A stretch of 64,000 nt of DNA from Bacteroidia bacterium (GTDB lineage Bacteria; Bacteroidota; Bacteroidia; Bacteroidales; GWA2-32-17), in contig JACREQ010000105.1 in the NCBI GenBank assembly GCA_016218155.1, positions 129,294 to 193,293 of the forward strand, written 5' to 3'. Made by a program: the position numbers and the translations under genes. Shown here piece by piece: positions 7,979-35,686 of the stretch; the first letter of the stretch is position 1; each line of letters begins with the position of its first letter. The notes beneath the pieces are model-generated. The model worked only from the letters and a program-made list of their open reading frames with translations. It was not told the DNA's origin and ran no database searches.

Positions 7979-8884
7979 TTATTTTATAATGTTTGACCTA
8001 ATCTCTGTCACTGTTTTACAAATTTCAGCAAAAACTTCAGGAGAAACTTTTACTTCTGATTTTGAAGATATAATTGATTTTCCATCTTTTTCTACAACTT
8101 CCATTTTAGAAGAAGAAGTTTGAATTTTGTCAAAAATAGTTTTTAGCTTTTCCATTTCAGGAAGTACAGCCTGTATATTAGGATCAGTGTTATATTCACT
8201 CATTAAACTGATTAATGTATTTAATGATAAGCGCTGGTCAGCAATACGCTCAATAAGTTCTTTATTTGAAGCAGTGTTCTGAGCAACTTTACAACCAACA
8301 TAAAGTCCTTCTAACCATCCACCTGCTAAAATAATAGCAGCAATTTCTGCACGGTCATTTTCTTTTAAGAAAGAATTCGAATTCATAAATGTTTCCGAAA
8401 TAATTTCCATTAAAGAGTCGCGATTATTTATATTGGTTTCCATACGGGTAATAATGCTTTTATCAATCGCATTTAAAATACCTAAATCATCAGCTAATTT
8501 TTTTGTTGCTGATAAGTATTTAATTGAAGCCTGTGATTGATCAAACATACTAGCAAAACTTAAATCGGTGCTATATACACCCAAATTTAATGCCATGCTC
8601 TTGGTAGTAGTATAATTGCCTAAATTGGTTATCGGATTTAAATAATCCTGATTATACTTTGCACCTGCTCTTTTCATTAACATTGCAGTTTCTATTGGCG
8701 ACGGTATGCCATAGATAACTTGTTTTGCTTTGTTAAATTCATCTGCATTGTTACCAGTTGCAACTGAATCTTCAATTTGGTCTTCAACATTCGCGTTATC
8801 GCCATTACATCCAACCATCATGATTGCTGCTGCGAATACGGAAAAAATTGTTAATTTGCTAATGTTTAATAATTTAACGTTCAT
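7979..8884 (-). CDS. Hypothetical lipoprotein
   Basis: The track ORF begins at a TTG (8911). An in-frame ATG at 8884 gives MNVKLLNISKLTIFSVFAAAIMMVGC, a lipobox-type signal. The remainder is predicted to be largely helical. Confidence 0.7.
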   Translation of the reverse strand: MNVKLLNISKLTIFSVFAAAIMMVGCNGDNANVEDQIEDSVATGNNADEFNKAKQVIYGIPSPIETAMLMKRAGAKYNQDYLNPITNLGNYTTTKSMALNLGVYSTDLSFASMFDQSQASIKYLSATKKLADDLGILNAIDKSIITRMETNINNRDSLMEIISETFMNSNSFLKENDRAEIAAIILAGGWLEGLYVGCKVAQNTASNKELIERIADQRLSLNTLISLMSEYNTDPNIQAVLPEMEKLKTIFDKIQTSSSKMEVVEKDGKSIISSKSEVKVSPEVFAEICKTVTEIRSNIIK

Positions 8885-9044
8885 ACAGGTTCCTGTTTGT
8901 TTTATGTACAATATTAAGGATTATCGCAAAAATAACAAATTTTTTAGAAAAAATAATTTTAGAAATAAAATATCATCTATAAATTCACATAATTAATATT
9001 TTAAATTACTTTTGATTTCTAAATTAATTATTACACTAAGTGTT

Positions 9045-9542
9045 ATGAATCACAAGATTAACTTACAAAGAAAATTATTTTCTACAAATGAAAAAGAAGT
9101 TATTGAAGTATTAAAAAATATTTCTGAAAAAGGTTATCCCGAAATTGTTACAGATTTAATTGGCTTGTATTCTTCTACAACATTTGAAAGTGTAAAAAGT
9201 AAGATCTATTATATTCTTTCTAATTTAAAAGACAAAAACTCTGTTAGTTATTTTATGGATGGTCTTAAATTACAAACTGATTCAGAAATCAGAAATCAAT
9301 TAATATCAGCATGCTGGCAAAACGGTCTGGATTTTTCTGAACACCTCGAATATTTTATTGAAGTAATTTCAAAAGAAAATATGTTTAATTCAATTGAAGC
9401 CTTCTCTGTTATTGAAAGTAATTATACAAGTCTTGAAGAAAACAAACTTGCTGAATTAAGAAATCACTTGAAAGAAATAATAAAAACAACTTCTGAAGAA
9501 AATATGAAATTGCTCATTGAAGTTGAAAGTCTTATTTCTTAA
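9045..9542 (+). CDS. Hypothetical protein (helical repeat-like)
   Basis: The track ORF starts at TTG 9012; the first ATG is 9045 (MNHKINLQRK...). Its 3' end overlaps convergent yggS by 11 nt. Confidence 0.6.
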   Translation: MNHKINLQRKLFSTNEKEVIEVLKNISEKGYPEIVTDLIGLYSSTTFESVKSKIYYILSNLKDKNSVSYFMDGLKLQTDSEIRNQLISACWQNGLDFSEHLEYFIEVISKENMFNSIEAFSVIESNYTSLEENKLAELRNHLKEIIKTTSEENMKLLIEVESLIS

Positions 9543-16188: not shown

Positions 16189-18162
16189 TTATTTACTTAG
16201 TATTTTAAATTCAACGCGTCTGTTTTGCTTTTTACCTTCTTCGGTATCATTTGAGGCTATTGGTTGTGAAAAAGCATATCCTTTATACTCCAAACGATTT
16301 TCGGCAATTCCTTTATTAATTAAAAACTCGACTACAGATTTTGCTCTTGCAGTTGATAATCTTGTATTTGTTTCAAGCGAACTCTGATTATCTGTATGTC
16401 CTGATATTTCGATACGTATATTCGGGTTTTCAACTAGCAGGTTATATAAATTCCCAAGTTCTGTAATAGACTCATCTTTTATTCTATCACTGGCATAATC
16501 AAAAAACATATTTCTTAATATAATTTTAGAGCCAACAGAAAAATTCTCAAGTTTAATATTTAATGTAACCTCAGAAAAAGCTGCTGATTCGGAAATATCA
16601 AAATTTTCAGAATGAAACAAATATCCTTTTGCCTTAACAGAGATACCATAATTTTTTCCTGAAGGTAAAGATATAAGATATTCACCGGTTGCTGAATTTG
16701 AAGTAAATATTGCTACAAGTTCATTTTTACTGTTATCTGTTATTTCAATCTCTGCTTCTATTGCAGAACCAGTATAAGCATCTTTTATAACTCCCATAAC
16801 AATAGTCACAGTAGCAATGCCCATTGGAGATTCTACTTCAGTATAATCTATAAGATAAATATCTTTATCGCCCATACCTTCGGATCTTACTGATGAGAAG
16901 TATCCATGCATACCGCTTGCAGACATTGTAAAATATATATCGTCATCCGGAGTATTTATCGGATAACCTATATTTACAGGTTCACTCCAGATTCCATCAG
17001 GTTGTAAAACTGAATAAAAGATATCATACCCACCCATTGTTTTATGACCCTTTGAAGAGAAATAAAGTGTTTTGTTATCAGGGTGAATAAAAACTCCTTC
17101 TTCGTCAAATTGTGTATTAATAACATTGCTTAACTTTTCCACATTGTCCCACTTACCTTTACTATCCTTTGTTGATCGATAAATGTCGCGACCTGTATTT
17201 TTATCCCTATCACTAACAAAGTATATAGTATTACCATCTGATGAAATACTGGCTGACGATTCTTTAAATTCTGAATTAATTGGCTTTGGTAAGGCATGAA
17301 GATCGCTCCATTTCTCTCCTTTAAGTTTACATGTATATAAATCGCCTCCATTATCACCCTTATAAATATATAGCTCTTGTCCGTCAGGAGATAAACCTAC
17401 TGTAGCTTCATGATTCTGAGTATTAATAGGTGTTCCTATATTTTCAGGAGTTGACCAGCCTGCATCAGTATTTTTGCTAAAGTAAACATCTTCAAAGAAG
17501 TTTAAGTCATTTTCATCTCGTTGCCCACCAGTAGTATTTGCACGTCGTGAAGTAAAAATCATAAGCTTTTCATCAGCAGAAATAAGTGGGCAATAATCTG
17601 GGAACTGCGAATTAACAAGATTAAGATTAATAATCTTACCTTTTACAACTGTATTAGCGAGAATAAAACCGTTTTTACATTCTTCTATTCTTTTGTTAAC
17701 ATTACTCTCAATTTCAGCTTTTTTTGCCTCATTTTTATTTACATTTTTATGAATAATAAATTCTTCAATTGCTTCGTCAAAACGCAATGAATTTTGTAAT
17801 GCAAGACCTAATTGAAAATGAATATCGTCTGCAACTGTTTTATCAAGACTAAAAGCTTTTTGAAGAAAAGCAAAAGCTTTATCTTTTTGAATTGAATTTA
17901 AATAACAAACTCCAATTTTATAATTAAGCAATGCATTTTCCGGGTTAAATGCATTTGCTTTTAAGTAATGTTCAAGTGCAATACTATAACAACATTTACG
18001 ATCTACAAATAATTCATTTCCTTCTAAAATACTTCTAAGTGCTGTTTTAAGTCCTTTAGTATCTTTTGAAAAATTATTTTTGGTAAACTCAACATTGGTC
18101 TGAGCAAACAAATTTATTGCAAAAAAACAAATTATTAATATTATGCAAAAGTGTTTTAACAT
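16189..18162 (-). CDS. Periplasmic TPR / PD40 beta-propeller / CarboxypepD_reg-like / OmpA_C fusion protein (paralog 1)
   Basis: 657 aa. Signal peptide, then a TPR block (ALEHYLKANAFNPENALLNYKIGVCYLNS). PD40-type repeats follow (DYCPLISADEKLMIFTSRR; EATVGLSPDGQELY; ESSASISSDGNTIYFVSDR; EEGVFIHPDNKTLYFSSKGHKTMGGYDIF). Next is a beta-sandwich (GVIKDAYTGSAIEAEIEITD...GEYLISLPSGKNYGISVKAKGY). The C-terminus is OmpA_C (IRIEISGHTDNQSS...ARAKSVVEFL...NRRVEFKIL). Confidence 0.9.
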   Translation of the reverse strand: MLKHFCIILIICFFAINLFAQTNVEFTKNNFSKDTKGLKTALRSILEGNELFVDRKCCYSIALEHYLKANAFNPENALLNYKIGVCYLNSIQKDKAFAFLQKAFSLDKTVADDIHFQLGLALQNSLRFDEAIEEFIIHKNVNKNEAKKAEIESNVNKRIEECKNGFILANTVVKGKIINLNLVNSQFPDYCPLISADEKLMIFTSRRANTTGGQRDENDLNFFEDVYFSKNTDAGWSTPENIGTPINTQNHEATVGLSPDGQELYIYKGDNGGDLYTCKLKGEKWSDLHALPKPINSEFKESSASISSDGNTIYFVSDRDKNTGRDIYRSTKDSKGKWDNVEKLSNVINTQFDEEGVFIHPDNKTLYFSSKGHKTMGGYDIFYSVLQPDGIWSEPVNIGYPINTPDDDIYFTMSASGMHGYFSSVRSEGMGDKDIYLIDYTEVESPMGIATVTIVMGVIKDAYTGSAIEAEIEITDNSKNELVAIFTSNSATGEYLISLPSGKNYGISVKAKGYLFHSENFDISESAAFSEVTLNIKLENFSVGSKIILRNMFFDYASDRIKDESITELGNLYNLLVENPNIRIEISGHTDNQSSLETNTRLSTARAKSVVEFLINKGIAENRLEYKGYAFSQPIASNDTEEGKKQNRRVEFKILSK

Positions 18163-18167
18163 TATAC

Positions 18168-20231
18168 TTAATTTTGAAGAACTTTAAACTCAACCCTTCG
18201 GTTTTGCTGACGTCCCTCTTCTTTATCATTAGAAGCAATTGGCTGTAAATAAGCGTATCCTTTAAATTCTAATCTGGAAGTTACTATACCTTTAGAAATT
18301 AAATACTCGACTACGGCTTTTGCTCTGTTTTCTGATAATTTCTGATTGGTTTGTAATGAACCCTGATTATCGGTATGACCTGAAATTTCTATACGGATAT
18401 TCGGGAAATCGGTAAGCATTTTAACAAGTCGGTCAAGCTCAGGGAAAGATTCAGGACGTAATGTTGCCTTTGCGTAATCGAAGAAAATGTTTTTAAGAAT
18501 AACTTTTTGTCCAACAGCCATTTTATTAAGTAGTATATCCTTTGTTATTTCCTGATAATTTGTTGCTGCAGGAATATCAAAATTTTCTGAATGGAAAAGA
18601 TATCCTGTTGCCTTAACAGCAATTCCGTAATTTCTTCCAGATGGCAACGAAATTAAATAACGACCGGTTGAGCTGTTTGATGATGATGTTGAAATAACTT
18701 CATTTTTAACATTATCTACAATTTCAATCTGAGCTTCAACAGGATTTAATGTTAATGCATCCTTTATAGTTCCTTTAAGTATTGTTAAACGGGTTGTTTT
18801 AATTTCTACCTGCTCGGCAATAATACTTTCTGCAACAGGTTCTACATTTGCTAACAAATTATCTTCATTATGTAAAACAGGAGTTTTTTCAGGACCACGA
18901 AAAGTTATCATATAAATATCATAGTCGCCTTGTCCATCATCACGTGAAGAACTGTAATAACCATGTTTACCACTTGCATTCATTATAAAAAACAAATCAT
19001 CGTCAGGAGTATTAACAGGGTATCCAAGATTTTCAGGCTTTGTCCATGTACCATCATCACTAAGTGTAGTTTTAAAAATATCAAAACCACCCATAGTATT
19101 ATGACCCCTTGAACTAAAATAAAGTGAACGACCATCAGGATGCATAAAAACACCTTCTTCATCATATTCGGTATTTATTGCACTTCCCATATTCTTTGGT
19201 TCTGCCCATCTCTCTTTTTCGGAATCCCAACGGGTTTCCCAAAGATCGTGTGCTCCAAAACCATCGGGTCTGTCACTTATAAAATACATTGTTCTGCCAT
19301 CAAACGAAAATGATGCTGAAGTTTCATGATAATCTGTATCTATGAATTTTTTTAAAGGTGAATCATCAGGGGATGTCCATTCAGAACCTTTAAGACTGGA
19401 AACAAAAATATCACCATTATTAGTTTTTCCATTAAAAGTAAAAAGCTGTTGCCCATCAGGCGAAAGACCAACGGTTGCATCATTATTATTAGTATTTAAC
19501 GGCTTACCAACATTTTTAGCAACTCCCCATGAATTTCCATCATTATATGATAAATAAATATCCTCAAAAAATAAATTGTCTTCAGGATCACGGCCCCCAC
19601 CATATGTATCTTCGCGACGTGAAGTAAACATCATCATTGACTCATCAGCTGAAATAAGAGGACTATATTCGGGATACATTGTATTTATTGTTGGTCCAAC
19701 ATTATCAATAAAAACGCGAATAGGATTTTTTATAAGGTCTTTACCAACGTTACACTCTACAATTCTTTTATCAATATCTTTTCTTTTTGCCTGAAGATCA
19801 GAAGGAGAAAGAGAATTTTTATATTTTGTATAAAGTTCAATTGCCTTGTCGAATTCAATATTAAGATGGTAGCCAGAAGCTAATACCCACATAATATCAG
19901 GTGCAATACCCGGATTAACACTATAAGCTTTTTTATAATACTCGATACATTTCACACGCTGTATTGAATGTAAATAACAATTTCCTATTTTATAATTCAA
20001 CATTGCATTATTCGGCAATTTCTGAACAACAGGCAAATAAAAATCAAGAGCTCTTCGTAAACCTCCTCTTCCAAGTGCATAATAATCTTCGGCCTGTTTC
20101 AGATTATCTTTTGCAACTTTATAATCATCTTTGCTAACAAAGTCCTCTTTTTTAATTTCAACTTCCTGAGCTTTTACAATACCTGTAAACACTATAAAAA
20201 CAACAGTCAATAATATTCCTATTTTTTTCAT
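18168..20231 (-). CDS. Periplasmic TPR / PD40 / CarboxypepD_reg-like / OmpA_C fusion protein (paralog 2)
   Basis: 687 aa with the same motif series as paralog 1 (EYSPLISADESMMMFTSRR; DATVGLSPDGQQLF; IRIEISGHTDNQGSLQTNQKLSENRAKAVVEYL...NRRVEFKVL). It is 5 nt from paralog 1. Confidence 0.9.
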   Translation of the reverse strand: MKKIGILLTVVFIVFTGIVKAQEVEIKKEDFVSKDDYKVAKDNLKQAEDYYALGRGGLRRALDFYLPVVQKLPNNAMLNYKIGNCYLHSIQRVKCIEYYKKAYSVNPGIAPDIMWVLASGYHLNIEFDKAIELYTKYKNSLSPSDLQAKRKDIDKRIVECNVGKDLIKNPIRVFIDNVGPTINTMYPEYSPLISADESMMMFTSRREDTYGGGRDPEDNLFFEDIYLSYNDGNSWGVAKNVGKPLNTNNNDATVGLSPDGQQLFTFNGKTNNGDIFVSSLKGSEWTSPDDSPLKKFIDTDYHETSASFSFDGRTMYFISDRPDGFGAHDLWETRWDSEKERWAEPKNMGSAINTEYDEEGVFMHPDGRSLYFSSRGHNTMGGFDIFKTTLSDDGTWTKPENLGYPVNTPDDDLFFIMNASGKHGYYSSSRDDGQGDYDIYMITFRGPEKTPVLHNEDNLLANVEPVAESIIAEQVEIKTTRLTILKGTIKDALTLNPVEAQIEIVDNVKNEVISTSSSNSSTGRYLISLPSGRNYGIAVKATGYLFHSENFDIPAATNYQEITKDILLNKMAVGQKVILKNIFFDYAKATLRPESFPELDRLVKMLTDFPNIRIEISGHTDNQGSLQTNQKLSENRAKAVVEYLISKGIVTSRLEFKGYAYLQPIASNDKEEGRQQNRRVEFKVLQN

Positions 20232-20245
20232 AATTCTAAATGTTA

Positions 20246-21298
20246 TTAATTACATTCTGAAACAAAAACAGAAGCAGCTTTAATACCTAATTCGTCTGCT
20301 TTCTTCCAATCATCACAGGCTTCCTTTACCATTCGAAGTTCTTCTTTTGCAATACCACGATTTAAATAAGCATAACCATAACTTGCATCTTTCTGAATTA
20401 ATTTATTAAAATCATCTATTGCGCCTTTATAATCTTTCATTTTAATTTTTGCAGAACCAAGATTATTATATGCAGCCAGATAATCATCTTTTAACATTAT
20501 TGCCTTGTTAAAATCTTCTATGGCACCTTTAAAATCTTTCTTTTCGAATTTTGCACTACCTCTGTTGTTATATGCAATAACATAGTCAGACTTAATTTTA
20601 ATAGCCTGGGAATATGCATCTATTGCTTCATCATATTTATCTTTTTTACGCAACACACTACCCAGATTATTATATGTAAAATCTAAGTTAGGGTCAATTG
20701 TTAGTGCTCTTCTATAATCGCTTATCGACTCATCAAATTTTTCGAGTTTTCTATATGCACTTCCACGATCATTATATGCTAATGCATATCTTGAGTCAAT
20801 TTGAATTGCACCTGTATAGTCCTCAACTGCTCCCTGATAATCATCTGCCATAAATTTAAGCATGCCTCTGTAATAAAAAGCTTTAGCATCTTTTAAACCT
20901 TTATTTATTGCTAATGTATAATCAATTACTGCTCCCTGATTATCTTTTAGCTGTTGTTTTGCTCTTGCACGTGAGTAATAAGCAGTAAGCATAGTAGAAT
21001 CATATTTTAAAGTAGCATCAAAATCTGAAATTGCATCCTGCAACATTTTCATTTCTACTTTTACACTTCCACGATTAAAATAAGCTTTTGCAAAATCAAC
21101 TTTATAACTAATTGCTTCGGTAAAATTATTTACAGCATCCTGATAAAGTTTATTTTTATAATTCTCAATACCTTTATTATATGCCATTTCAGCTTCCTGA
21201 TTCTCGGCAACAACTAAAGTAGTATCACCCTGAATCTGTGCTATAACAGTAATTCCGGTACAGAAAAACATAATAATAAATGGAAATAGATTTTTCAT
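20246..21298 (-). CDS. Secreted TPR-repeat protein
   Basis: 350 aa; signal peptide, then about 9 consecutive 34-aa TPR units (A.YNNLGSA......Y..AI.D..KAI.....Y..AY.NRG). Confidence 0.9.
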   Translation of the reverse strand: MKNLFPFIIMFFCTGITVIAQIQGDTTLVVAENQEAEMAYNKGIENYKNKLYQDAVNNFTEAISYKVDFAKAYFNRGSVKVEMKMLQDAISDFDATLKYDSTMLTAYYSRARAKQQLKDNQGAVIDYTLAINKGLKDAKAFYYRGMLKFMADDYQGAVEDYTGAIQIDSRYALAYNDRGSAYRKLEKFDESISDYRRALTIDPNLDFTYNNLGSVLRKKDKYDEAIDAYSQAIKIKSDYVIAYNNRGSAKFEKKDFKGAIEDFNKAIMLKDDYLAAYNNLGSAKIKMKDYKGAIDDFNKLIQKDASYGYAYLNRGIAKEELRMVKEACDDWKKADELGIKAASVFVSECN

Positions 21299-21405
21299 AC
21301 ACGCATTTTTTAATTCAGTTTACGAATAATGCGTGCAATTTAAGTAATTATAAAATAAATTAAAAATTGAATAAATTAAAAATTACTAAGACTTCTTTAA
21401 GTGCT

Positions 21406-23364
21406 TTAAGACAACATATTAATTAAAACTTTATTAAGCGGATACCATGACAATGTGTTAATAACTTCGCTGATATGTACTCTTTTACCATCTTTATATA
21501 CAACTATCCATGCATCAGGGGTTCCACAACTTATTCTTTCTTGTTTAGCACTAGAATATTTGTCGTAACTACCAATTAAATATTTATACCAACCTTCATG
21601 ATTTTCCATTGAAATCTCTCTTTTCCCCGGATATCGCTGATGTAGTTCTGCATATGGAATTTCGCGATGACAAGCTCCAACCTGAACCTTAAAAGCAACA
21701 TTTGATGAACTTATTATCTGATCTGATTTTGTTTGGTTTGTATCATCGTTTTTTGCTACAACATCAGTCTTAACTTCATTACTAACAACTGCCTCTGATT
21801 TATTTTCAACAATAGGGTCATTATTTAAAACAGGTTGTATTTCAGTTTTATTTTCTGATTTTATTGTATCTTTTTTTTCTTCACCTCCATTATTAACATT
21901 CACAAATAAATTTGATGGTTCACCATTATCAACCGGAATACGATAATTATCAGGATTATCAACAGTATCGGTTTTGTTTACCATTGCAAGGTCCTGAATC
22001 TTTTGAAAAGAATAAATGTCAATAAAACCTAAGCCATCTTTTCTTATTGCAGAAAAATATCCATGTTCGTTTTCATTTTCTCCAAATACCTGACAATACA
22101 TTTCATTATCAGGAGTATTTAATGGAAATCCTAAGTTTTCGGGTTTTGACCATTTTCCATCAACTAAATTTGTACGAAACATATCAAATCCTCCCATTGA
22201 ATTATGTCCTGTTGATGAAAAATATAAAGTTTTACCATCTTTAGATAAGGAAACACCTTCTTCATCATAAATAGTATTTACATCACTACCCAGATTTTCT
22301 GGATCAGACCAATCTCCATTATCACTTAAATGAGACACAAAAATATCTCTTAAACCAAAAGTTTTATCATCTCTATTACTAACAATATACAATGTTTTTC
22401 CATCATCAGAAATACACGCAGATGACTCATGTGAAGAAGTATTTATTTTGCTTAGTGCTTTTGGCGATGACCATTCTCCATTATTAAATTCATACTCATA
22501 TAAATCGCCACCATTTATTAAACCACGGTAAATAAATAACAATTTACCATTAAAAGATAAACCAACACTTGCATCGTGCGAAGAAGTATTTACATTTCCA
22601 TTAATTTTTTGTGGCATCAGCCAACCATTTTCTCCTTTTGTTGACTGATAAATATCTTCATAATATTCCAATTCATTTGGATCAATCTCTCCACCTGTGC
22701 TACCCTCACGTCGTGATGTAAATATCATTAATTTCTCATCAGAGGTTATTAACGGTGCATAATCACTATGAACTGAATTTACGATGCTATTGTTTTCGAT
22801 TTTAACATTTACCGGATTAGAGACCAACAATTTTCCATTCTCACATTCTGAGATTTTTTTATTAATCTGTTTTGAAATTTCGGTTTTATCAGAACCAATA
22901 TATGCACTTTCAAATTTCTTATAATGTTCAATTGCATTATCAAACTGTAGATTATAATGATACCCTTGACCAATTGCATATTCAATTTTTGAGTCAACAT
23001 CTGATTTTAGGCTTTGAGATTTTAAAAAATAATCTAGTGAAGCAGCTTTATCTGATGAATTTAAATAACAAACTCCTATTTTAAAGTTTAAAATTGAATA
23101 ATTTGGATTAAATGAATTTGCTTTTAAATAATATTCGAGTGCCTGAGGGTACAACCATTTCTTTTGTTTAGAAAATAAATCATCGCCTTTTTTAATATTT
23201 TGTACCGCTTGATTAAATCCGGTTTCGTCTGTAAAATTCTTTTTCTTAAATTCAATATCCTGTGCATTTACATTTACAAATATCATTAAATTAACAAATA
23301 GAAAAAACACAACAAATTTTACAGATGAACCAAAAGATAATTTGGAGATAAATTTCACTTGCAT
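21406..23364 (-). CDS. Periplasmic TPR / PD40 beta-propeller protein with a C-terminal SPOR-like domain (paralog 3)
   Basis: 652 aa. The N-terminal two thirds are colinear with paralogs 1 and 2 (ALEYYLKANSFNPNYSILNFKIGVCYLNS; DYAPLITSDEKLMIFTSRR; DASVGLSFNGKLLF; YDEEGVSLSKDGKTLYFSSTGHNSMGGFDMF). A disordered N/K/E-rich linker follows. The C-terminus is FKVQVGACHREIPYAELHQRY...GWYKYLIGSYDKYSSAKQERISCGTPDAWIVVYKDGKRV, which fits the SPOR beta-alpha-beta pattern. No OmpA_C motifs. Confidence 0.85.
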   Translation of the reverse strand: MQVKFISKLSFGSSVKFVVFFLFVNLMIFVNVNAQDIEFKKKNFTDETGFNQAVQNIKKGDDLFSKQKKWLYPQALEYYLKANSFNPNYSILNFKIGVCYLNSSDKAASLDYFLKSQSLKSDVDSKIEYAIGQGYHYNLQFDNAIEHYKKFESAYIGSDKTEISKQINKKISECENGKLLVSNPVNVKIENNSIVNSVHSDYAPLITSDEKLMIFTSRREGSTGGEIDPNELEYYEDIYQSTKGENGWLMPQKINGNVNTSSHDASVGLSFNGKLLFIYRGLINGGDLYEYEFNNGEWSSPKALSKINTSSHESSACISDDGKTLYIVSNRDDKTFGLRDIFVSHLSDNGDWSDPENLGSDVNTIYDEEGVSLSKDGKTLYFSSTGHNSMGGFDMFRTNLVDGKWSKPENLGFPLNTPDNEMYCQVFGENENEHGYFSAIRKDGLGFIDIYSFQKIQDLAMVNKTDTVDNPDNYRIPVDNGEPSNLFVNVNNGGEEKKDTIKSENKTEIQPVLNNDPIVENKSEAVVSNEVKTDVVAKNDDTNQTKSDQIISSSNVAFKVQVGACHREIPYAELHQRYPGKREISMENHEGWYKYLIGSYDKYSSAKQERISCGTPDAWIVVYKDGKRVHISEVINTLSWYPLNKVLINMLS

Positions 23365-23666
23365 ATTATTAAAATTATAATGAATTACTATATTATTAAA
23401 TCATCAATATAGTATTTACCCATTTTACTTATACTAAAGTAACAATGTGTTAAATTTATTAAGTACACATTATTAGAAAGTTATAAACTGCTAAATGTTA
23501 AGAAATATCTTACATTAGTTTTTGACAGTCATGTTATTATACTAAAACAAGATTATCATTTTAAATTTCAAATTCTTTTTATAAACTTAAAATAAATGCG
23601 TTAATTCAATTAACTTTTATAAAACACAAACGTATAAACAGCAAAATTGAAAGAATATAAATAAAT

Positions 23667-26147
23667 ATGACTAATCATCTGTTAATCAAAATAATATTTT
23701 TCTTTATTTTATTCCTTAATTTTAATATCTTTTCAGAAAGAATTAATGCTCAGGATATACCCCAAAATAGAAAAAAACTTCAGAAGCTTGCAAATGAACA
23801 TTTTAACAATGAAGAATTCAGTAAAGCCTTGCCATTATTATTAATACTTGACAGTTTAACTCCGGATAATTTTGAGATTAAATATGAGATTGGTGCTTGT
23901 TATTTAAATACTCCTTATGAAAAAACCAAAGGAATTCCATATCTTGAGTATGCATTAGAAAAAGGGGGTAATCTGTTACCAAATGTTGTTTTTTACGATT
24001 TAGGTACTCTCTATCATATTAATTACCAATTTAACGAAGCAGAAAATCAATTTAAAAGATTTTTAGAAATTACCGAAAAAAACAATCACTTAAGATTGTC
24101 TGCCTCAAGAATGATTACTATTTGCAATAATGCAAAAGAAATATATTCTAATCCAATTCTTACCGAAATTTATAATATTGGTGCTCCTATTAATTCCGAT
24201 AATAGCGAAACAACTCCGTTAATTTCTGCAGATGAAGAAATAGTATTTTTCACAAGATCTTTTTCTAAAACTTATGGTCAGTTAGATATAGAATTTTTAA
24301 AAAAAATATATTGTTCGGTACTAAAAAATAAAAAATGGCAGGAGCCATTTGAAATTAATATCGAAAACCCAATTGATGGCATGCAAATATCATTGGCAGG
24401 TACATCCCCGGATGGTGAATTATTGTTTTTTTCAATTGGCAATGAGACGTCTTCAGACATTTATTTCTGCAGAATAATAGACGGAAAATGTAATAATTTT
24501 AATAAAATGCCTGATGTTATAAATTCATCTTTCTGGGAAGGGAAAGTGAGTATAACACCTGATGGCAATACTCTGTATTTCTCGAGTAACAGACCTGGCG
24601 GATTTGGTGGAAAAGATATTTATGTTGTTACAAAAGATGAAAATGGAAATTGGGTTGATTTAAAAAATTTGGGTTCCTCTGTTAATACTGAGTTTGACGA
24701 AGATGCCCCATTTATTCATCCTGATAACAAAACTCTATATTTTTCATCAAATGGTCACAATACTATGGGTGGCTATGATGTTTTTACAAGTGTTAAACAA
24801 GATACAACCAACAACTGGACAGAACCGACAAATTTAGGTTATCCAATAAATACAACCAGTGATGATATTGGTTTTGTGATTTCTGCCAACGGAAATAATG
24901 CATATTTGTCTTCGGCACATGATAACCAGTATGGAAAACATGATATTTACAAAGTTGTTTTACATAAAACCATTCCGCTTACTTTAATTAAAGGCGTAAT
25001 AATGGGTGGCGATCCTCCCAAGCCTGTAAAAGCAAAAATAAAGGTCATTGATCACGAAACAAAAGAAAGACTAAGATATGTGTATAATCCGAGCCCTAAA
25101 AACGGAAAGTACCTTCTTATTTTTCCACCAAATAAAAATTACGATATGATTATTGAAGCTGAAGGTTATTACCCTCAACTTATTAATATTTTCGTTCCAA
25201 ATCAAACCTATTTCTATGAACTTTTTCAGGAAATATATCTTAAACAAGTTAAAATCAACGAAAAAGATAGCGTTATTGGACAAGAAATAACTATAACAAA
25301 TACTTTCTATGATATATATAAAACAAAGGCAGCAGATAGCCTGACAAGCGAAGAGGAATCTAACAAAGTACACAAATTTGACGATTTACTAAAAACAGTT
25401 GAAAATATTATAAACTCTACGGACAGCATAGGATTAGATGCCCTTGATAGCCTTGCTGAGAATAATAACATTCTGGAAAATAAAAACAACAAAAAGTCAT
25501 CTAACAAAGAATATAATGACTTATTAAATTTAATCGAAAACGCTATTGAAAAAACAGACTCAATTTCATTACTTCTTTTAGATGCCAATACCATTTATAA
25601 TGATATAACAAGCAGTGTTTACTTTTTTGGAGTTGATAATATATCAAATAATTTAGAAAAGGTTATTGTAGACAATGACACAATATATACACTTCCTAAA
25701 TTAAATACTATTAAAAATAAAGAACAAAACAAAGTTGAAATAAAAAATGAACGAATTTTTGAATTTAAAACATCATCAGAAAATAGCAGAAAATATGTTT
25801 ACATCAATAATATATACTTTGACTCAGGGAAATCAATTATAGATAAAAAATATTCACAAATATTGAATAGCATAGTTGAACTATTGTTAATTAATAAAAA
25901 TTTAGGTATTGAACTTCATGGATATACAGACCCAGTCGGAGATGATGATGTTAATTTAGAATTATCAAAAACCCGCGCATTTAATGTTATGGAGTTTATT
26001 GTTTCGAAGCAGGTAGAGTCAAACAGAATTATAATGAACGGACATGGCGAATCTGGGAATGACTCAAAAGGTAAAATAAATGAAATGCAAATGTTAAGGA
26101 GAGTAGAACTTAAGATTTTTGAAGTTAAAAACCCTTCTCAGGAGTAA
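23667..26147 (+). CDS. Periplasmic TPR / PD40 / CarboxypepD_reg-like / OmpA_C fusion protein (paralog 4); YfiB-position gene
   Basis: 826 aa; ETTPLISADEEIVFFTRS, FDEDAPFIHPDNKTLYFSSNGHNTMGGYDVF, an N/K-rich insert, and OmpA_C (IELHGYTDPVGDDDVNLELSKTRAFNVMEFI...LRRVELKIF). It is transcribed divergently from paralog 3 and lies 5 nt upstream of the YfiR-like gene. Confidence 0.9.
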   Translation: MTNHLLIKIIFFFILFLNFNIFSERINAQDIPQNRKKLQKLANEHFNNEEFSKALPLLLILDSLTPDNFEIKYEIGACYLNTPYEKTKGIPYLEYALEKGGNLLPNVVFYDLGTLYHINYQFNEAENQFKRFLEITEKNNHLRLSASRMITICNNAKEIYSNPILTEIYNIGAPINSDNSETTPLISADEEIVFFTRSFSKTYGQLDIEFLKKIYCSVLKNKKWQEPFEINIENPIDGMQISLAGTSPDGELLFFSIGNETSSDIYFCRIIDGKCNNFNKMPDVINSSFWEGKVSITPDGNTLYFSSNRPGGFGGKDIYVVTKDENGNWVDLKNLGSSVNTEFDEDAPFIHPDNKTLYFSSNGHNTMGGYDVFTSVKQDTTNNWTEPTNLGYPINTTSDDIGFVISANGNNAYLSSAHDNQYGKHDIYKVVLHKTIPLTLIKGVIMGGDPPKPVKAKIKVIDHETKERLRYVYNPSPKNGKYLLIFPPNKNYDMIIEAEGYYPQLINIFVPNQTYFYELFQEIYLKQVKINEKDSVIGQEITITNTFYDIYKTKAADSLTSEEESNKVHKFDDLLKTVENIINSTDSIGLDALDSLAENNNILENKNNKKSSNKEYNDLLNLIENAIEKTDSISLLLLDANTIYNDITSSVYFFGVDNISNNLEKVIVDNDTIYTLPKLNTIKNKEQNKVEIKNERIFEFKTSSENSRKYVYINNIYFDSGKSIIDKKYSQILNSIVELLLINKNLGIELHGYTDPVGDDDVNLELSKTRAFNVMEFIVSKQVESNRIIMNGHGESGNDSKGKINEMQMLRRVELKIFEVKNPSQE

Positions 26148-26152
26148 TATTT

Positions 26153-26725
26153 ATGAGGCATTTCATTTCACATATAAGTCAAGTTATATTTTTATTATGG
26201 ATAGTTGCATTCATTAATTTACCAATTAAAAGCTACTCTCAACAATATACAGAATACGAATTAAAAGCCGCATATATTTTTAATTTTGGAAAATTTGTAC
26301 AATGGCCAGAAGAAGCGTTTAAAAAATCAACTGATCCTTTCATTATTGGCATTTTTGGCAACGATCCATTTGGTGATATACTACAACAAACCATTCAAAA
26401 CAAATCACTTCAAAACAGGCCAATAATTATTATTAATATTATAAATATTGAAGATGCATCAACATGCCATATTCTTTTTATAAGCAAAACAAATAAATTT
26501 AATTTAACTCAGGTAATTCAATCTTTAAACAATAAACCAGTTCTTACAATTGGCGATAACATAGAAGAATTTTGTCAAACCGGTGGAATAATAAATTTTA
26601 CCGGGCAACACTCACAAAAAAGATTCGAAATAAATAATAAAGCTTCGGCAAGGGTAAATTTAATAATTAGTTCTAAACTTTTAGTATTATCAAGAATTGT
26701 TACAGAAGATGAAATTAAATTTTAG
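26153..26725 (+). CDS. YfiR-family (DUF4154) periplasmic protein
   Basis: 190 aa; signal peptide, then [20 protein letters not shown]...ILFIS...VLTIGD...GGIINF, which I recognise as the DUF4154/YfiR pattern. Confidence 0.8.
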
Positions 26726-28719: not shown

Positions 28720-29067
28720 ATGGAAATAAACTTAGATTTAAGCTATTTAGAAAATATGGCAGCAGGCGACAATAATCTTATAAAAGAGATGATTGAAATT
28801 TTTAAAGAACAGGTTCCAGAGTTTGTTTGCGAAATGAATAAAGCAATAAGCAATAATGATTCAAAAGCACTTGCTTCTATTGCACACAAAGCAAAATCAT
28901 CTGTTGCAATTATGGGAATTATAAGTCTTATTGAAGATTTGAAAGTACTCGAAAATATTGCTGCAAATAATGAGAGAACAGACGAATACCCCGAATTTGT
29001 TAACAGATTTATTTTAAATTCTAAGGAAGCAATAATAAAGTTAAATGAAGTCTCATCAAAATTATAA
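28720..29067 (+). CDS. Hpt (histidine phosphotransfer) domain protein
   Basis: 115 aa four-helix type with SIAHKAKSSVAIMG (phospho-His motif HKxKSS). Confidence 0.85.
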   Translation: MEINLDLSYLENMAAGDNNLIKEMIEIFKEQVPEFVCEMNKAISNNDSKALASIAHKAKSSVAIMGIISLIEDLKVLENIAANNERTDEYPEFVNRFILNSKEAIIKLNEVSSKL

Positions 29068-29084: not shown

Positions 29085-29846
29085 ATGTTAAAATCAGTTT
29101 TAAAATATTTCACCCTATCTTTTATTGTTTTCACAATGTTTGCATGCTCGGTTTTCACAGCAAAACAAGATGATATTGAAGAAAAAGAGGGGTTAACATA
29201 TTTAAAAGGAACCAAAAAACTTTTTACCGGTGAAGTGTTAGATAATTACGAAAACGGGAAAAATAGTATTTCTTATAATTATAAAGATGGAAAGAAAGAT
29301 GGCGTTTCAAAAGCCTGGTATGAAAGCGGTCAATTAGAATACGAAGGAAGATATCTTTCAGGATTAAAAGACGGAGAATTTAAAGGTTACTTTAACGATG
29401 GAACATTAGGTGCAGTTAGAAACTATTCAAACGGAGTAGAAAATGGTGATTGGAAAATATGGCATGAAAACGGAAAATTAAAAGAATCTGGTCACTTTAC
29501 AAAAGGACAGAAAGATAGTTTATGGAATTGGTATTATGAAAATGGTCAAAAATGGATTGAAATTAAATTTAACAATGGTAAAGAACAAGGTTTGTGGAAA
29601 GCATGGCACGAAACAGGCCAACTACGTGAAGAAATAAATTACCAGAACGGAAAAAAAGAAGGACTTTGGCAGGAATGGAATAAAGAAGGTCAAATAATTT
29701 CGAAAGGCTTGTACTCTCAGAACCACGAAAACGGAAACTGGTATGGCTGGTACGACAATGGTAAACCACGTTTCGAAAAACTTTTTAAGAATGGCGATAT
29801 TATTTATGACAAAGAATGGGATGAAAATGGTAATCCTATAAAATAA
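29085..29846 (+). CDS. MORN-repeat-variant (YwqK-like) lipoprotein
   Basis: 253 aa; lipobox FTMFAC; repeated G.K.G....W...G.L..E..Y..G..(D/E)G units. Confidence 0.8.
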   Translation: MLKSVLKYFTLSFIVFTMFACSVFTAKQDDIEEKEGLTYLKGTKKLFTGEVLDNYENGKNSISYNYKDGKKDGVSKAWYESGQLEYEGRYLSGLKDGEFKGYFNDGTLGAVRNYSNGVENGDWKIWHENGKLKESGHFTKGQKDSLWNWYYENGQKWIEIKFNNGKEQGLWKAWHETGQLREEINYQNGKKEGLWQEWNKEGQIISKGLYSQNHENGNWYGWYDNGKPRFEKLFKNGDIIYDKEWDENGNPIK

Positions 29847-29918: not shown

Positions 29919-31115
29919 CTACTTCACTCCCATTAATTCAACATCAAAAACAAGGTTTGATTTTGGAGGAATTGCACCAGGATAACCATTTTCTCCATAT
30001 GCTAATTGATAAGGGATTAATAATCTTAGCTTATCTCCCACTTTCATTAATCCAATACCTTCATCCCAACCTTTAATTACCATACCTTTTCCTAAGTCAA
30101 AATCAAGAGGCTGTCCGCGTTGAACTGAAGAATCGAAAATATCTCCATTTTCAAAATAACCGGTATAGTGAACAGAAACCTTTTTTCCTGCTTCTGCTTT
30201 AACAGCATCTTTTTTACCTTCGCTAACAACAATATATTTTAATCCTGTTGGTGTTGACAAAGTATCTTTACCTTTTGTATCAAATAAAGCTGGTTTAACT
30301 TCAGGTGTAAAATCAACTAATTCAACATCAAAAATTAAATTTGCTTTTGCAGGAATAACAGGTGAACGACCTGCTTCGCCATATGCTAATTGATATGGAA
30401 TTAATAATCGTGCCTTATCTCCTACTTTTAAAATTGAAATACCTTCATCCCAGCCTTTAATAACCATACCTTTTCCAACCTGAAAGCTTATAGGTTCACC
30501 ACGTTTTACTGATGAATCGAATATTTTTCCATCTTCAAAATAACCTGTATAATGAACTTTTACTGTTGATCCTTTTGGTGGTCTCTGATTATTCTTATTT
30601 GTCTGAGAAACCAAAATTAATTTTAAACCTGATGGAGTTTTTAATGTATCTTTTCCTGCTGTATTATATGGTTCTACCTTTACTTCAGGTGTAACTTTCA
30701 TAAGTTTTACAGTAAATTTTAGAGTAGAATTTGCGGGAATAGAACCCATACTTTGCGATCCATAACCTAATTCTGCAGGAATAATAAATACTGCTGAATC
30801 ACCTTCATTTAATAAAGCTATTCCTTCGTCCCAACCTTTAATTACTTGACCTTGTCCAAGTACAAAAGCAAATGGTTGTCCGCGTTTATACGAAGTATCA
30901 AAAATTGTATCATTCATTAATTTGCCCTCATAATGTACTGAAACTCTATCGCCTGGTTTTGGTTGCACACCTTTTCCTTTTTGAAGAATAACGTATTTAA
31001 GCCCTGAAGCTGTAGTTTTATAATCCTTTTCCTTTATCTGACTCATGGTTTGAAATGTTATAAGATTAATTGCTAAGGCTGTTAGCCATAAAAATTTTAT
31101 TTTCATATTATTCAA
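29919..31115 (-). CDS. FKBP-type peptidyl-prolyl isomerase with three tandem FKBP domains
   Basis: 398 aa; signal peptide, then three repeats of T(A/P)SGLKY...G..V.VHY.G......FDSS..RG.P..F.(L/V)G.G.VIKGWDEGI......G.K..L.IP..LAYG. Alternative start at 31106. Confidence 0.9.
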   Translation of the reverse strand: MNNMKIKFLWLTALAINLITFQTMSQIKEKDYKTTASGLKYVILQKGKGVQPKPGDRVSVHYEGKLMNDTIFDTSYKRGQPFAFVLGQGQVIKGWDEGIALLNEGDSAVFIIPAELGYGSQSMGSIPANSTLKFTVKLMKVTPEVKVEPYNTAGKDTLKTPSGLKLILVSQTNKNNQRPPKGSTVKVHYTGYFEDGKIFDSSVKRGEPISFQVGKGMVIKGWDEGISILKVGDKARLLIPYQLAYGEAGRSPVIPAKANLIFDVELVDFTPEVKPALFDTKGKDTLSTPTGLKYIVVSEGKKDAVKAEAGKKVSVHYTGYFENGDIFDSSVQRGQPLDFDLGKGMVIKGWDEGIGLMKVGDKLRLLIPYQLAYGENGYPGAIPPKSNLVFDVELMGVK

Positions 31116-31965
31116 TGTTTATTAGTTCTATTTCAAAAATTAATGTCGAAAAAGGTTGTATCATTTTAAACTGCTGATCGCCGTAAGCAAGACCTGAAGG
31201 GATTATTAGTGTTGCCTTTCCACCTTTTTTCATCATACCAATACCTTCTTCGAGCCCGGGGATTACTTCTTTTTCGCCAAACTTGAATTCAAAAACTTCG
31301 CCACGTTTTAAAGAGGAATCAAAAACTTCGCCACTAACAAAAGAACCAGTATAATGAACTTTTACTTTTTGTCCAACCTTTGGATAACTTCCCTTTCCTG
31401 CCTTATCTTCGATATAATAAAGTCCGGTACTTGTTGGTTTTACAGTAATATTTGCATTTTCAATAAATGATTCCAGAATTTTTTGTTCCTGTTCGGCTGT
31501 CATTAAATCTGCAGCCTTTTTCTCTTCTAAAAATTTATCATAACTAAAAATTTCAACAAGCTTAATATTAAAAACTAGCTTATCTCCTTTCTTAATAAAT
31601 TCAGGAATTGCACTGTTTTTTGTTTCTAAAAAGAATCTTTCGGCATCTACAACAAACTCTGCACTGTCGCCTTCATGCATTAATGCAAAAGCATCATCAA
31701 TAGTTCCTCCGTTTTTTGAAGCAGCATTCATTTTCATTCTAAAAGGCTGCCCGTTAAATTCTTTAGTATCAAAAAGTACTGAATCTTTCTCAGTTGTGTA
31801 TTTCATTTTAATAACAAGAATATCGCCAACAACAGGTTTCTTATTATTATCGTTTCTTACAAAGAACTTGTATTTCATTCCTGAAGTATCAGTAACATAA
31901 CCATCAGAATTACAAGAGTAAGCTACTATAATAAGAGCCAATAAATAAAAAATATTCTTCATCAA
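31108..31965 (-). CDS. FKBP-type peptidyl-prolyl isomerase lipoprotein
   Basis: 285 aa; lipobox IVAYSC; an N-terminal FKBP-like/degenerate domain, a linker helix, and a C-terminal canonical FKBP (VKVHYTGSFVSGEVFDSSLKRGEVFEFKFGEKEVIPGLEEGI). Confidence 0.9.
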   Translation of the reverse strand: MMKNIFYLLALIIVAYSCNSDGYVTDTSGMKYKFFVRNDNNKKPVVGDILVIKMKYTTEKDSVLFDTKEFNGQPFRMKMNAASKNGGTIDDAFALMHEGDSAEFVVDAERFFLETKNSAIPEFIKKGDKLVFNIKLVEIFSYDKFLEEKKAADLMTAEQEQKILESFIENANITVKPTSTGLYYIEDKAGKGSYPKVGQKVKVHYTGSFVSGEVFDSSLKRGEVFEFKFGEKEVIPGLEEGIGMMKKGGKATLIIPSGLAYGDQQFKMIQPFSTLIFEIELINIE

Positions 31966-32185: not shown

Positions 32186-33145
32186 CTACTTTGTTATCTT
32201 TTTCAACGCAACAGTTTTACCATTCTCCACCTTTACCAAATACAACCCCTTTGCCAACTTCTCTGTATTGATCACAAACTCATTTTCCTTAGTTATTGTT
32301 TGCAAAATTACTTTGCCCGTAATATCTAAAACACTTAAAGTTGTATTTTCACTAGGTATATTGTTAAACTTTACATTAAGGTGGTTAACCCATGGGTTTG
32401 GGTAAATTGTTATATCTTCTGTGTTTTTTACTGTTTGCTCACTTACCCCCAACCAATTCTCGCAAAAAAGAGAATCCGGGCTAACACATACATCATCTAT
32501 ATAATAATATGCATAATTATTATTTGTAGGCGATAAGTTTAAAGTATCAGTATGTGCATCATCAAAAAAATTGCCTAACAGTATATACGAATAAGCCGAA
32601 TCGGCAATAAAAGAACCGCTTATTCTTGTCCATTTAGCAGTATCGGTAATTATTGTATTAGTATAAAAGTGCGCTGTGTTATTTATTGGAGCAGGGTTAG
32701 AATATGAATAAGGAATTGTTGAAAATTTAATGCCTATTTTATTTGAGGCAATTGTTGTACCTAAATTAATTCCCCCAGAAAGGTTTACATAAAATGAAAA
32801 AAAATATTTTTGATTAATCACAAAGGAACTTACTAATTGTGAACCTATAAACTCTCTGTTATTTTGGGGTATTGGAGTAAAAGTTATTAATCCTAGAAAA
32901 GCGTTCCCTGAATGAGAATATTGATAACCTGCAGAACAATTTGGTGGTACAATATCTAAAAAAGAAGAACAAGAGTTATAATAATCTGGAGTTTCTCTAC
33001 AAACAAACCAATTTTGACAATACAATAGTTGATCCATATAATTTGGACAAAAACTATATTGCTCATAACTTGGATTGGAAACTAAATTTTGAGTAAAACT
33101 ATTAAAAGGGAAAAAAAATAACAATAAACATAATATTTTATTCAT
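32186..33145 (-). CDS. T9SS type A C-terminal-domain secreted protein
   Basis: The track start, GTG 33178, lies inside a terminator hairpin. ATG 33145 gives MNKILCLLLFFFPFNSFTQ, a signal peptide. The mature N-terminus is NLVSNPSYEQYSFCP. The C-terminus ITIYPNPWVNHLNVKF...LSVLDITGKVILQ...LAKGLYLVKVENGKTVALKKITK matches the Por secretion tail pattern. Confidence 0.85.
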   Translation of the reverse strand: MNKILCLLLFFFPFNSFTQNLVSNPSYEQYSFCPNYMDQLLYCQNWFVCRETPDYYNSCSSFLDIVPPNCSAGYQYSHSGNAFLGLITFTPIPQNNREFIGSQLVSSFVINQKYFFSFYVNLSGGINLGTTIASNKIGIKFSTIPYSYSNPAPINNTAHFYTNTIITDTAKWTRISGSFIADSAYSYILLGNFFDDAHTDTLNLSPTNNNYAYYYIDDVCVSPDSLFCENWLGVSEQTVKNTEDITIYPNPWVNHLNVKFNNIPSENTTLSVLDITGKVILQTITKENEFVINTEKLAKGLYLVKVENGKTVALKKITK

Positions 33146-33157
33146 ATGAAAACAAGA

Positions 33158-33190
33158 ATTTGAAAGCCTGATTTTCACAGGCTTTCAAAT
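33158..33190 (-). terminator. Rho-independent terminator retained behind the orphan CTD remnant
   Basis: ATTTGAAAGCCTG / CAGGCTTTCAAAT: a perfect 13-bp stem with a 7-nt loop, 10 nt downstream of the remnant's TAA. Confidence 0.7.
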
Positions 33191-35138: not shown

Positions 35139-35162
35139 ATTATATATTTAAAAAAAATTAAT

Positions 35163-35362: not shown

Positions 35363-35371
35363 CGTTTTATG

Positions 35372-35677: not shown

Positions 35678-35686
35678 ATTATCTTT

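Follow-up and report, generated by a model that had tools for sequence, protein, structure and literature searches.

What does a bacterium do with four large secreted proteins, encoded side by side, that each join tetratricopeptide repeats (TPR) to a PD40 β-propeller? The question is raised by a locus of a Bacteroidia bacterium (Bacteroidales, GTDB lineage GWA2-32-17; assembly GCA_016218155.1, contig JACREQ010000105.1, positions 129,294 to 193,293 of the forward strand). This whole stretch of 64,000 nucleotides is called the window here, and all coordinates refer to it. Between 16189 and 26147 it encodes the four proteins, P1, P2, P4 and P5, together with a TPR-only protein, all five open reading frames (ORFs) lying exactly where an earlier note on this DNA had placed them. 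That note had taken the large proteins for fusions of the Tol-Pal components CpoB, TolB and Pal, amplified four-fold, and knew of no functional study. We find that they share their architecture with PorE and CHU_0125, both of which have been studied experimentally, and that the genes form two modules, A and B, which point away from each other. With moderate confidence, we take the locus to consist of two conserved divergent modules of PorE/CHU_0125-like proteins, A probably acting as an envelope tether and B as a YfiBNR-like sensor.

Layout of the locus

The features of the two modules are as follows; aa stands for amino acids, bp for base pairs, TM for transmembrane segment and CRD for a CarboxypepD_reg-like β-sandwich domain.

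16189-18162, minus strand: P1 (657 aa); signal peptide, TPR, PD40 β-propeller, CRD, OmpA_C; last gene of module A
18168-20231, minus strand: P2 (687 aa); signal peptide, TPR, propeller, CRD, OmpA_C
20246-21298, minus strand: TPR-only protein (350 aa); secreted, all-TPR, upstream of P2
21406-23364, minus strand: P4 (652 aa); signal peptide, TPR, propeller, disordered linker, SPOR-like C-terminus
21478-21699, minus strand: SPOR-like domain of P4 (aa 556-629); from AlphaFold2 topology, Pfam and a PDB profile match
23365-23666, no strand: intergenic region between P4 and P5; 302 bp, AT-rich, divergent, separating module A from module B
23667-26147, plus strand: P5 (826 aa); signal peptide, TPR, propeller, CRD, P5-specific module, OmpA_C; first gene of module B
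25254-25781, plus strand: P5-specific module (aa 530-705); helices 555-637 and a small β unit 642-675
26153-26725, plus strand: YfiR-like periplasmic protein (DUF4154), 190 aa; PF13689, NF053591
26697-28610, plus strand: hybrid sensor kinase (637 aa); TM, CHASE8, TM, HAMP, HisKA, HATPase, REC
28720-29067, plus strand: Hpt phosphotransfer protein, 115 aa; match to the TorS Hpt region
29085-29846, plus strand: MORN-repeat protein, 253 aa; Pfam MORN_2, optional trailing gene of module B

Module A runs on the minus strand in the order P4, TPR-only, P2, P1, with gaps of 107, 14 and 5 bp. On the other strand, the YfiR-like gene starts 5 bp after P5 and overlaps the kinase gene by 29 bp. Signal peptides are present on all five proteins and on the 190-aa protein, ending ...A/Q or ...S/Q, where the slash marks the cut; for the four large proteins the ends read by eye are ...FA/QT, ...KA/QE, ...NA/QD and ...NA/QD. 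A cut before Gln is typical for signal peptidase I substrates of Bacteroidota. Inspection of the same six leaders by eye revealed no L-x-x-C lipobox and no lipobox Cys.

Domain architecture of the large proteins

Pfam detects PD40 in P1, P2, P4 and P5 (E 1e-15 to 3e-25) and OmpA in P1, P2 and P5 (E 5e-16 to 2e-20). P4 was modeled with AlphaFold2 from its family alignment (pLDDT 71.8) and shows TPR helices at 47-182, a propeller at 187-455, a disordered linker at 459-552 and then a β-α-β-β-α-β unit at 556-629. The corresponding P5 model (pLDDT 81.8) has TPR at 51-161, a propeller at 167-431, a β-sandwich at 439-549, a helical and small-β module at about 555-675 and an OmpA-like domain at 708-820. 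In Foldseek searches of the PDB, TolB was the top match of both the P4 and the P5 models (4r40_C, E 3e-8; 2ivz_A, E 4e-9), while the C-terminus of P5 matched the PorE C-terminal domain (6TOP), Pal and OmpA-like peptidoglycan-binding domains. The TolB-like propeller is thereby confirmed for P4 and P5, so a structure prediction devoid of a β-propeller, which would have spoken against the fusion, was not what we obtained. Pfam and the models also agree with the domain order that had been described, from signal peptide through TPR and PD40 propeller to a distinct C-terminal end.

Three of the four proteins, P1, P2 and P5, were said to continue with a CRD and OmpA_C, and they do, with the caveat that CarboxypepD_reg is sub-threshold by Pfam in P1 and P2 (about 20 bits, cut-off 32.3). 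In P5 the CRD is backed by the modeled β-sandwich of residues 439-549. P4 lacks both domains according to Pfam and AlphaFold2. The Pal/OmpA-like nature of the three C-termini is supported by their residues as well as by Pfam and, for P5, by fold: P1, P2 and P5 keep the peptidoglycan-binding D-x7-N-x6-R triad (GHTD..N..R in P1), with the same spacing as D576/N584/R591 of PorE. For the OmpA_C of P2, the closest solved sequence is the PorE C-terminal domain 6TOP (E 1.5e-25), and the D/N/R positions of the two align.

Relationship to PorE, CHU_0125 and Tol-Pal

The best-scoring NCBIfam model for all four proteins is CHU_0125_OmpA (NF053607), at 298 bits for P1, 320 for P2, 182 for P4 and 222 for P5 (cut-off 620). 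T9SS_PorE (NF052230) follows with 273, 286, 150 and 192 bits (cut-off 600). Matches to both models are near-full-length for P1 and P2 and N-terminal for P4 and P5. We rejected an assignment of P1, P2, P4 and P5 as PorE or CHU_0125 equivalogs, as all lie far below 600 and 620 bits. Ten P2-like proteins of other genomes reach 236-385 bits with the CHU_0125 model and are also below both cut-offs, which makes the P2 group a separate, unnamed subfamily.

Functional studies of proteins with this architecture do exist, contrary to the earlier note. PorE of Porphyromonas gingivalis (PG1058/PGN_1296) is an outer-membrane lipoprotein of the T9SS (type IX secretion system), complexed with PorP. Its OmpA_C and residues D576 and N584 are needed for gingipain secretion, and its C-terminal domain has been crystallised with a bound peptidoglycan fragment. 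The family is Bacteroidota-specific, and multiple homologues per genome are known; those of gliding Bacteroidota are mostly non-lipoproteins, according to the PorE paper. P1, P2 and P5 have the TPR, β-propeller, CRD, OmpA_C order of PorE and keep its D/N/R triad. The window proteins differ from PorE in that it is a lipoprotein whereas they have signal peptidase I-type leaders without a lipobox. In P4 the CRD and OmpA_C are replaced by a linker and a SPOR-like domain, and P5 has an extra module of about 175 aa and a YfiR-like/kinase partner set.

CHU_0125 of Cytophaga hutchinsonii (TPR, PD40 and OmpA_C in about 656 aa) shares this combination and a signal peptide with P1, P2 and P5. In its deletion mutant the outer membrane is leaky and vesicle release rises about six-fold, a phenotype that corresponds to the function proposed below for module A. 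It differs from the present case in that no TPR-only partner gene is described in its published study.

The likeness to the proteobacterial Tol-Pal system extends to three folds, those of CpoB/YbgF, TolB and Pal, in the same order and here on one chain, with TolB as the top fold match and Pal among the C-terminal matches. It ends at the N-terminal domain of TolB, which is absent here, the TPR block standing in that position. At the level of family models the similarity is distant: the TolB model (TIGR02800) gives P5 19 bits (cut-off 343), and the Pal model (TIGR02802) gives 66, 70 and 33 bits (cut-off 125), with no lipobox. A 2025 paper in Mol Biol Evol, in a section entitled 'A Putative OM-PG Tethering System in Bacteroidetes', states that no tol-pal loci could be identified in Bacteroidetes. 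PorE is presented there as a fusion of the type cpoB-tolB-(carboxypeptidase)-pal and called 'an extremely compact Tol-Pal system' that may take the place of the missing one, with possible septal trafficking. The central idea of the earlier note is thus sound, folds and domain order agreeing with a CpoB+TolB+Pal fusion, but it was already in print for PorE. What is new is the subfamily structure and the conserved PARTNERSHIPS, that is, the TPR-only/P2 pair, the SPOR-ended paralogue and the P5/YfiR-like/kinase cassette, none of which we found described in open-access papers or on bioRxiv.

Ancestry of the paralogues

The four large proteins had been called paralogous, and the relationship is genuine. 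By BLASTP, P1 and P2 are 47% identical over 688 aa, P1 and P4 46% over 427 aa, P2 and P4 37% over 565 aa, and P5 is 32-34% identical to the other three over 430-530 aa. The TPR-only protein matched none of them. To date the duplications, a phylogeny that the earlier note had suggested was built by neighbor joining on the N-terminal 470 residues. Every window paralogue groups with orthologues of other genomes (bootstrap 94 for P2, 100 for P4, 100 for P5 and 50 for P1), and P5 forms the most divergent group. Each of the four has its own orthologue group elsewhere, and the tree indicates that the duplications that gave rise to them are ancient. The expression 'amplified four-fold' is misleading for this reason: these are four separate orthologue groups shared with other genomes, not a local expansion.

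P2 is the most widely conserved of the four. A search with it returned 4371 proteins at E<=1e-20, of which the best 120 are 43-91% identical, nearly all full length and mostly from uncultured Bacteroidales and Bacteroidota metagenome-assembled genomes (MAGs). Database homologues of P4 and P5 range from 100%-identical entries to about 40% identity. The whole order P4, TPR-only, P2, P1 recurs at locus L004, where the P2 orthologue is 73% identical, and in Bacteroidetes GWF2_38_335 (L002/L003; 64%); P1 orthologues hold the same operon position in L004 (71% N-terminal identity) and L002 (49%). When genome contigs were searched with a profile of the P4 alignment, no P4 orthologue appeared among the matches listed, which were only P1/P2-like paralogues of at most 46% identity over the N-terminal 450 aa.

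Some relatives of P2 have an extended architecture within the same superfamily. P0094, P0103 and P0107, of about 1077 aa and 43-44% identical to P2 over 80-84% of the query, have extra CarbopepD_reg_2 (PF13715) and PF22902 domains.

The TPR-only protein and module A

The 350-aa secreted all-TPR protein was rightly described and lies between paralogues as reported, but it is not an incidental insert. Among 80 matches listed from species-representative genomes, 73 had enough upstream sequence, and a TPR-only homologue of 300-480 aa directly precedes the P2-like gene in 51 of these 73 loci. Median identity of the homologues is 36%, and in the examples printed they align over most of their length. 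The loci come from several cultured Hymenobacter species, one Rikenellaceae MAG, one MAG of Rikenella microfusus, and MAGs of Prevotellaceae, Bacteroidaceae, Flavobacteriales and Chlorobiota, among others. The TPR-only protein is thus a conserved partner of P2. Its match to Pfam TPR_1 is strong (E 1e-46), while its 25 bits with the YbgF/CpoB model (TIGR02795, cut-off 90) amount to generic TPR similarity. Among the same loci, a PorE-like second gene in the P1 position downstream is occasional, and P4 upstream of the pair is confined to close relatives.

In GWF2_38_335 (L002/L003, 14360-16562, plus strand), a gene for an extracytoplasmic function (ECF) sigma factor and an overlapping 554-aa gene directly follow the P4, TPR-only, P2, P1 operon. 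The 554-aa product has no Pfam match and is possibly an anti-sigma factor. The window lacks the pair at that position; ECF-type sigma genes are found at 2529-3113 and 3842-4438.

A SPOR-like end on P4

The β-α-β-β-α-β topology of P4 residues 556-629 fits the SPOR fold. Pfam SPOR (PF05036) is the top match in 16 of 16 orthologous P4 C-termini (best E 3.8e-5), and a profile of P4-type C-termini has the SPOR domain of CwlC (1x60) as its top PDB match, at E 0.026. The SPOR element of the earlier note is in keeping with the modeled fold and the orthologues, while the window sequence itself remains below the Pfam cut-off. Together, sequence and model lend support, if weak, to a divergent SPOR-like domain at the C-terminus of P4. 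Its modeled topology resembles that of the SPOR-domain division proteins (FtsN, DamX, DedD, RlpA; also CwlC), and SPOR is the sole consistent Pfam match of this region. P4 differs from those proteins in its sub-threshold match and in being fused to TPR and a TolB-like propeller, a combination for which we found no description in open-access papers or on bioRxiv.

The same kind of end occurs on other members of the family. Loci L129 (2722-5463, plus strand) and L130 (5932-8724, plus strand) encode P5-type proteins of 913 and 930 aa in which the P5-specific module is retained while the C-terminal end is a SPOR-like domain, not OmpA_C; the kinase is still downstream, after a gap of about 540 bp. 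As judged from these sequences, OmpA_C and SPOR-like ends are interchangeable, a natural swap of wall-binding modules. The swap, in P4 as in L129 and L130, suggests that wall binding is the conserved requirement.

A second cluster in Bacteroidetes GWF2_38_335 (L005, 883-5946, minus strand) encodes a 763-aa PQQ-like β-propeller protein with Pfam SPOR, a protein of 214 aa, and one of 667 aa with TPR, PD40, CRD and OmpA, whose identity to P2 over its N-terminal region is only 29%. Here too, a propeller-SPOR protein is paired with one that is PorE-like.

P5 and the YfiR-like/kinase cassette

The gene after P5 encodes a protein that matches PF13689 (E 1e-42) and exceeds the cut-off of NF053591, the TOL_0243 family (139 bits, cut-off 125). 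In the kinase, Pfam finds HAMP and, between two transmembrane segments, CHASE8 (E 1e-13), which we take to be the YfiN-type periplasmic domain. With the model for kinases associated with YfiR-like proteins (NF053592), it reaches 169 bits, short of the cut-off of 194. Pfam Hpt is found in the orthologous genes of L004 and L005, and in L006 and many other loci Hpt is fused to the kinase. L004, L005 and L006 all have the cassette of P5, YfiR-like, kinase and Hpt genes, each in a different flanking context; a MORN-protein homologue follows Hpt only in L004, L094, L096 and L098.

A metagenome scan extended the comparison to 56 loci with the P5-specific module, 50 with at least 400 bp downstream and 44 with at least 1200 bp. 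The YfiR-like gene immediately follows the P5-type gene in 46 of the 50, and both it and the kinase are present in 40 of the 44. This linkage holds across 38-72% identity and differing flanks. The earlier note had tied the whole protein cluster to a YfiR/kinase module; such a link does exist and is conserved, though for P5 alone.

The P5-specific module is conserved across the P5 family alignment and has neither a Pfam match nor a PDB sequence match; whole-model Foldseek matches of P5 are dominated by the propeller and OmpA_C. Only 48 representative clusters among 1.84 billion proteins contain the module, and in full-length matches (about 790-945 aa) it sits at about aa 500-700. By sequence comparison, these roughly 175 aa are restricted to the P5 protein type. 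The divergent arrangement of the two modules recurs in L004, L089-L092, L102, L113, L115, L116, L125, L126, L130 and L133-L135, and in many loci the TPR-only/P2 operon is divergently paired with the P5 cassette.

The sister group of P5 in the tree (bootstrap 99; L136, L140, L142, L144-L149, L151-L160 and L162-L166) is a subfamily of about 770 aa whose sequences seem to come mostly from soil metagenomes. Its members gave no blastp match to the P5-specific module and have neither a YfiR-like nor a kinase gene nearby.

Module B resembles the YfiBNR/HmsCDE systems of Pseudomonas, E. coli and Yersinia in three co-encoded elements: a DUF4154/YfiR-type periplasmic protein, an inner-membrane sensor with a CHASE8-type periplasmic domain and HAMP, and a protein carrying a peptidoglycan-binding OmpA_C. 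The output differs, being GGDEF there and HisKA-HATPase-REC plus Hpt here, as does the gene order. YfiB is a 168-aa lipoprotein, whereas P5 is a non-lipidated PorE-like protein of 826 aa.

Proposed function of the two modules

With the domain architectures, folds, conservation of wall-binding residues, orthologue groups and gene linkage established, we infer a function for each module by analogy; tethering, the septal targeting of P4 and the P5/YfiR-like/kinase logic all belong to this second step. P1, P2, P4 and P5 would be non-lipidated periplasmic proteins with a protein-binding end, formed by TPR and propeller, and a peptidoglycan-binding end. The OmpA_C domains of P1 and P2, with the D/N/R triad of PorE, are expected to bind the peptidoglycan stem peptide, and the SPOR-like domain could direct P4 to denuded glycan at the division septum. 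The TPR/propeller halves, helped by the TPR-only partner, may hold outer-membrane partners. In this way module A would tether the outer membrane and keep it stable, in the manner of CHU_0125 and of what has been proposed for PorE as a compact Tol-Pal substitute.

Module B is envisaged as an envelope-state sensor of the YfiBNR type in which a phosphorelay output replaces the diguanylate cyclase. YfiB sequesters YfiR and needs peptidoglycan binding to do so. P5, anchored to peptidoglycan and reaching toward the outer membrane, would occupy the position of YfiB; it may capture or release the periplasmic YfiR-like protein, which in turn would gate the CHASE8 domain of the kinase. By this logic the YfiR-type protein would be a repressor, and its sequestration would set the inner-membrane sensor free.

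A further step, which we offer as a tentative conjecture and consider rather doubtful as a whole, would join the two modules. P5, the YfiR-like protein, the CHASE8 kinase and Hpt might form an envelope-integrity sensor of several uncultured Bacteroidia lineages, with a Tol-Pal-like fusion as the YfiB-like mechanical or structural probe. The phosphorelay might tune the divergent tether operon (TPR-only and P2, optionally joined by P1 and P4), and the SPOR-like end of P4 might be the septal arm of a Tol-Pal substitute.

Several observations weigh against the tether and sensor functions. Scores below both equivalog cut-offs mean that the function of PorE or CHU_0125 is not simply transferable. 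The C-terminus of P4 gives only 16.2 bits with Pfam SPOR (cut-off 21, E 0.013). The OmpA_C of P5 is not YfiB-like (31 bits with the YfiB model, cut-off 128), and the activity of YfiB requires outer-membrane anchoring, while P5 has no lipid anchor and a lipobox was not seen in any of the five proteins. No response regulator for the phosphorelay was identified. A scan for sigma-70 promoters and terminators gave counts equal to those of shuffled sequence and was uninformative, so the operon structure is read from spacing and synteny only. The conserved gene order would equally fit P5 as a regulated target or a scaffold, and the T9SS cargo genes in the same window leave room for a T9SS-related role.

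Alternative explanations

The last two points lead to the alternatives that fare best, both of which we nevertheless regard as unlikely. The proteins could be PorE-like T9SS accessories whose propeller pairs with a PorP/SprF-like barrel, so as to anchor non-mobile surface proteins whose C-terminal domain (CTD) is of type B, or the secretion machine, to the wall, as proposed for Flavobacterium johnsoniae. In that organism six porP-like genes adjoin porE-like genes, and in P. gingivalis, where domain-deletion work has been published, the WD40 domain of PorE is implicated in its interaction with PorP. Such a role fits the matches to the PorE model, which cover nearly all of P1 and P2 and the N-terminal part of P4 and P5, and it fits the cargo in the window (CHU_C type-B CTD at 1316-2548, Por_Secre_tail at 32186-33178 and 39255-40373). 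However, no porP-like or type-B CTD gene adjoins any of the five window genes, and neither a porP-like gene nor a PorP/SprF-like Pfam family is listed for the flanks in L001-L006. The conserved partners are instead the TPR-only protein and the YfiR-like/kinase pair, the scores are 150-286 bits where PorE membership takes 600, and there is no lipobox.

Alternatively, the two-component system could have P5 as its output or client, with the YfiR-like protein as a periplasmic ligand-binding co-sensor of the kinase, P5 as a co-expressed envelope-repair or tether factor, and the neighboring operon in the same regulon. The same gene-order data fit this arrangement, and the recurrent divergence from the TPR-only/P2 operon fits a shared regulatory region. 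Against it, P5 is the first gene and lies 5 bp from the YfiR-like gene, and coupling so tight across 38-72% identity is more typical of complex subunits. From the unique conserved module of P5 one would expect a dedicated partner, not a generic tether. We consider this explanation improbable and retain the sensor as the preferred reading of module B.

An energised equivalent of Tol-Pal, in which the CRD or propeller engages a TolA/TonB-like transducer and a TolQR/ExbBD motor that actively moves the proteins to the septum, seems highly improbable. The CRD does resemble the N-terminal extension of Bacteroidetes TonB-dependent transporters, which is implicated in TonB interaction, the propellers are TolB-like, and the 2025 paper raises force transduction for PorE. 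But neither tolQ, tolR and tolA nor exbB, exbD and tonB are among the annotated genes of the window (about 1-45 kb) or next to the orthologous loci L001-L006, and the N-terminal domain of TolB is missing. P4, the paralogue with a plausible septal address, has no CRD, and a SPOR domain would target the septum passively, not in an energised manner. Finally, four homologous genes with common motifs in 10 kb might suggest that one 'OmpA family' gene was recently amplified in tandem in this lineage, giving redundant copies with no higher-order organisation. This reading is rejected by paralogue identities of only 32-47%, by clustering with orthologues of other genomes (bootstrap 94-100 for P2, P4 and P5), by gene order kept where P2 orthologues are 64-73% identical, and by C-terminal ends that differ (OmpA_C, SPOR-like, extra module).

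Neighboring genes

The type-B cargo (1316-2548, minus strand) is a PKD protein, and the proteins at 32186-33178 and 39255-40373 (both minus strand) are of the Por_Secre_tail type A. All three are of T9SS cargo type, from which it follows that the organism possesses a type IX secretion system. Beside the type-B cargo we saw no porP-like gene; its downstream neighbor, cut off by the window start, encodes another secreted protein rich in Cys, Thr and Asn.

Just downstream of module B lie two adjacent FKBP-type peptidyl-prolyl isomerase genes (29919-31115 and 31108-31965, both minus strand). For the first, which contains three FKBP stretches, the NCBIfam model of BamJ, of the beta-barrel assembly machinery, gives 231 bits (cut-off 100). 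The pair is syntenic in L004 and places another envelope-biogenesis function beside the cluster.

Cell-wall and division genes are found at 33603-35980 (minus strand), 36154-37254 (plus strand) and 43586-44647 (minus strand), encoding RNase Y, an anhydro-MurNAc kinase (AnmK) and a YceG/MltG-like protein. A 101-aa ORF after RNase Y occupies the position of the Pfam ZapA gene in L004; it is assigned as ZapA by synteny only. Five ORFs of 156-486 aa gave no Pfam match at E<=1e-6 (7508-7978, 7979-8911, 38692-39258 and 40473-41933, minus strand; 9012-9542, plus strand).

Significance

In Bacteroidetes, which lack an identifiable tol-pal, PorE-like proteins are the published candidates for outer-membrane tethering and constriction. 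If none of the proposals made here hold, the locus is another set of 'OmpA family' PorE homologues. The TPR-only/P2-like pair is widely conserved, distinct from PorE and CHU_0125, and present in cultured Hymenobacter species. With the SPOR-like-ended paralogue, a simple mechanism becomes available for 'septal trafficking', until now a matter of speculation only. The wiring of P5 to a YfiR-like/CHASE8 kinase phosphorelay, if true, would for the first time suggest a part for this family in envelope signaling and the existence of YfiBNR logic with a kinase output.

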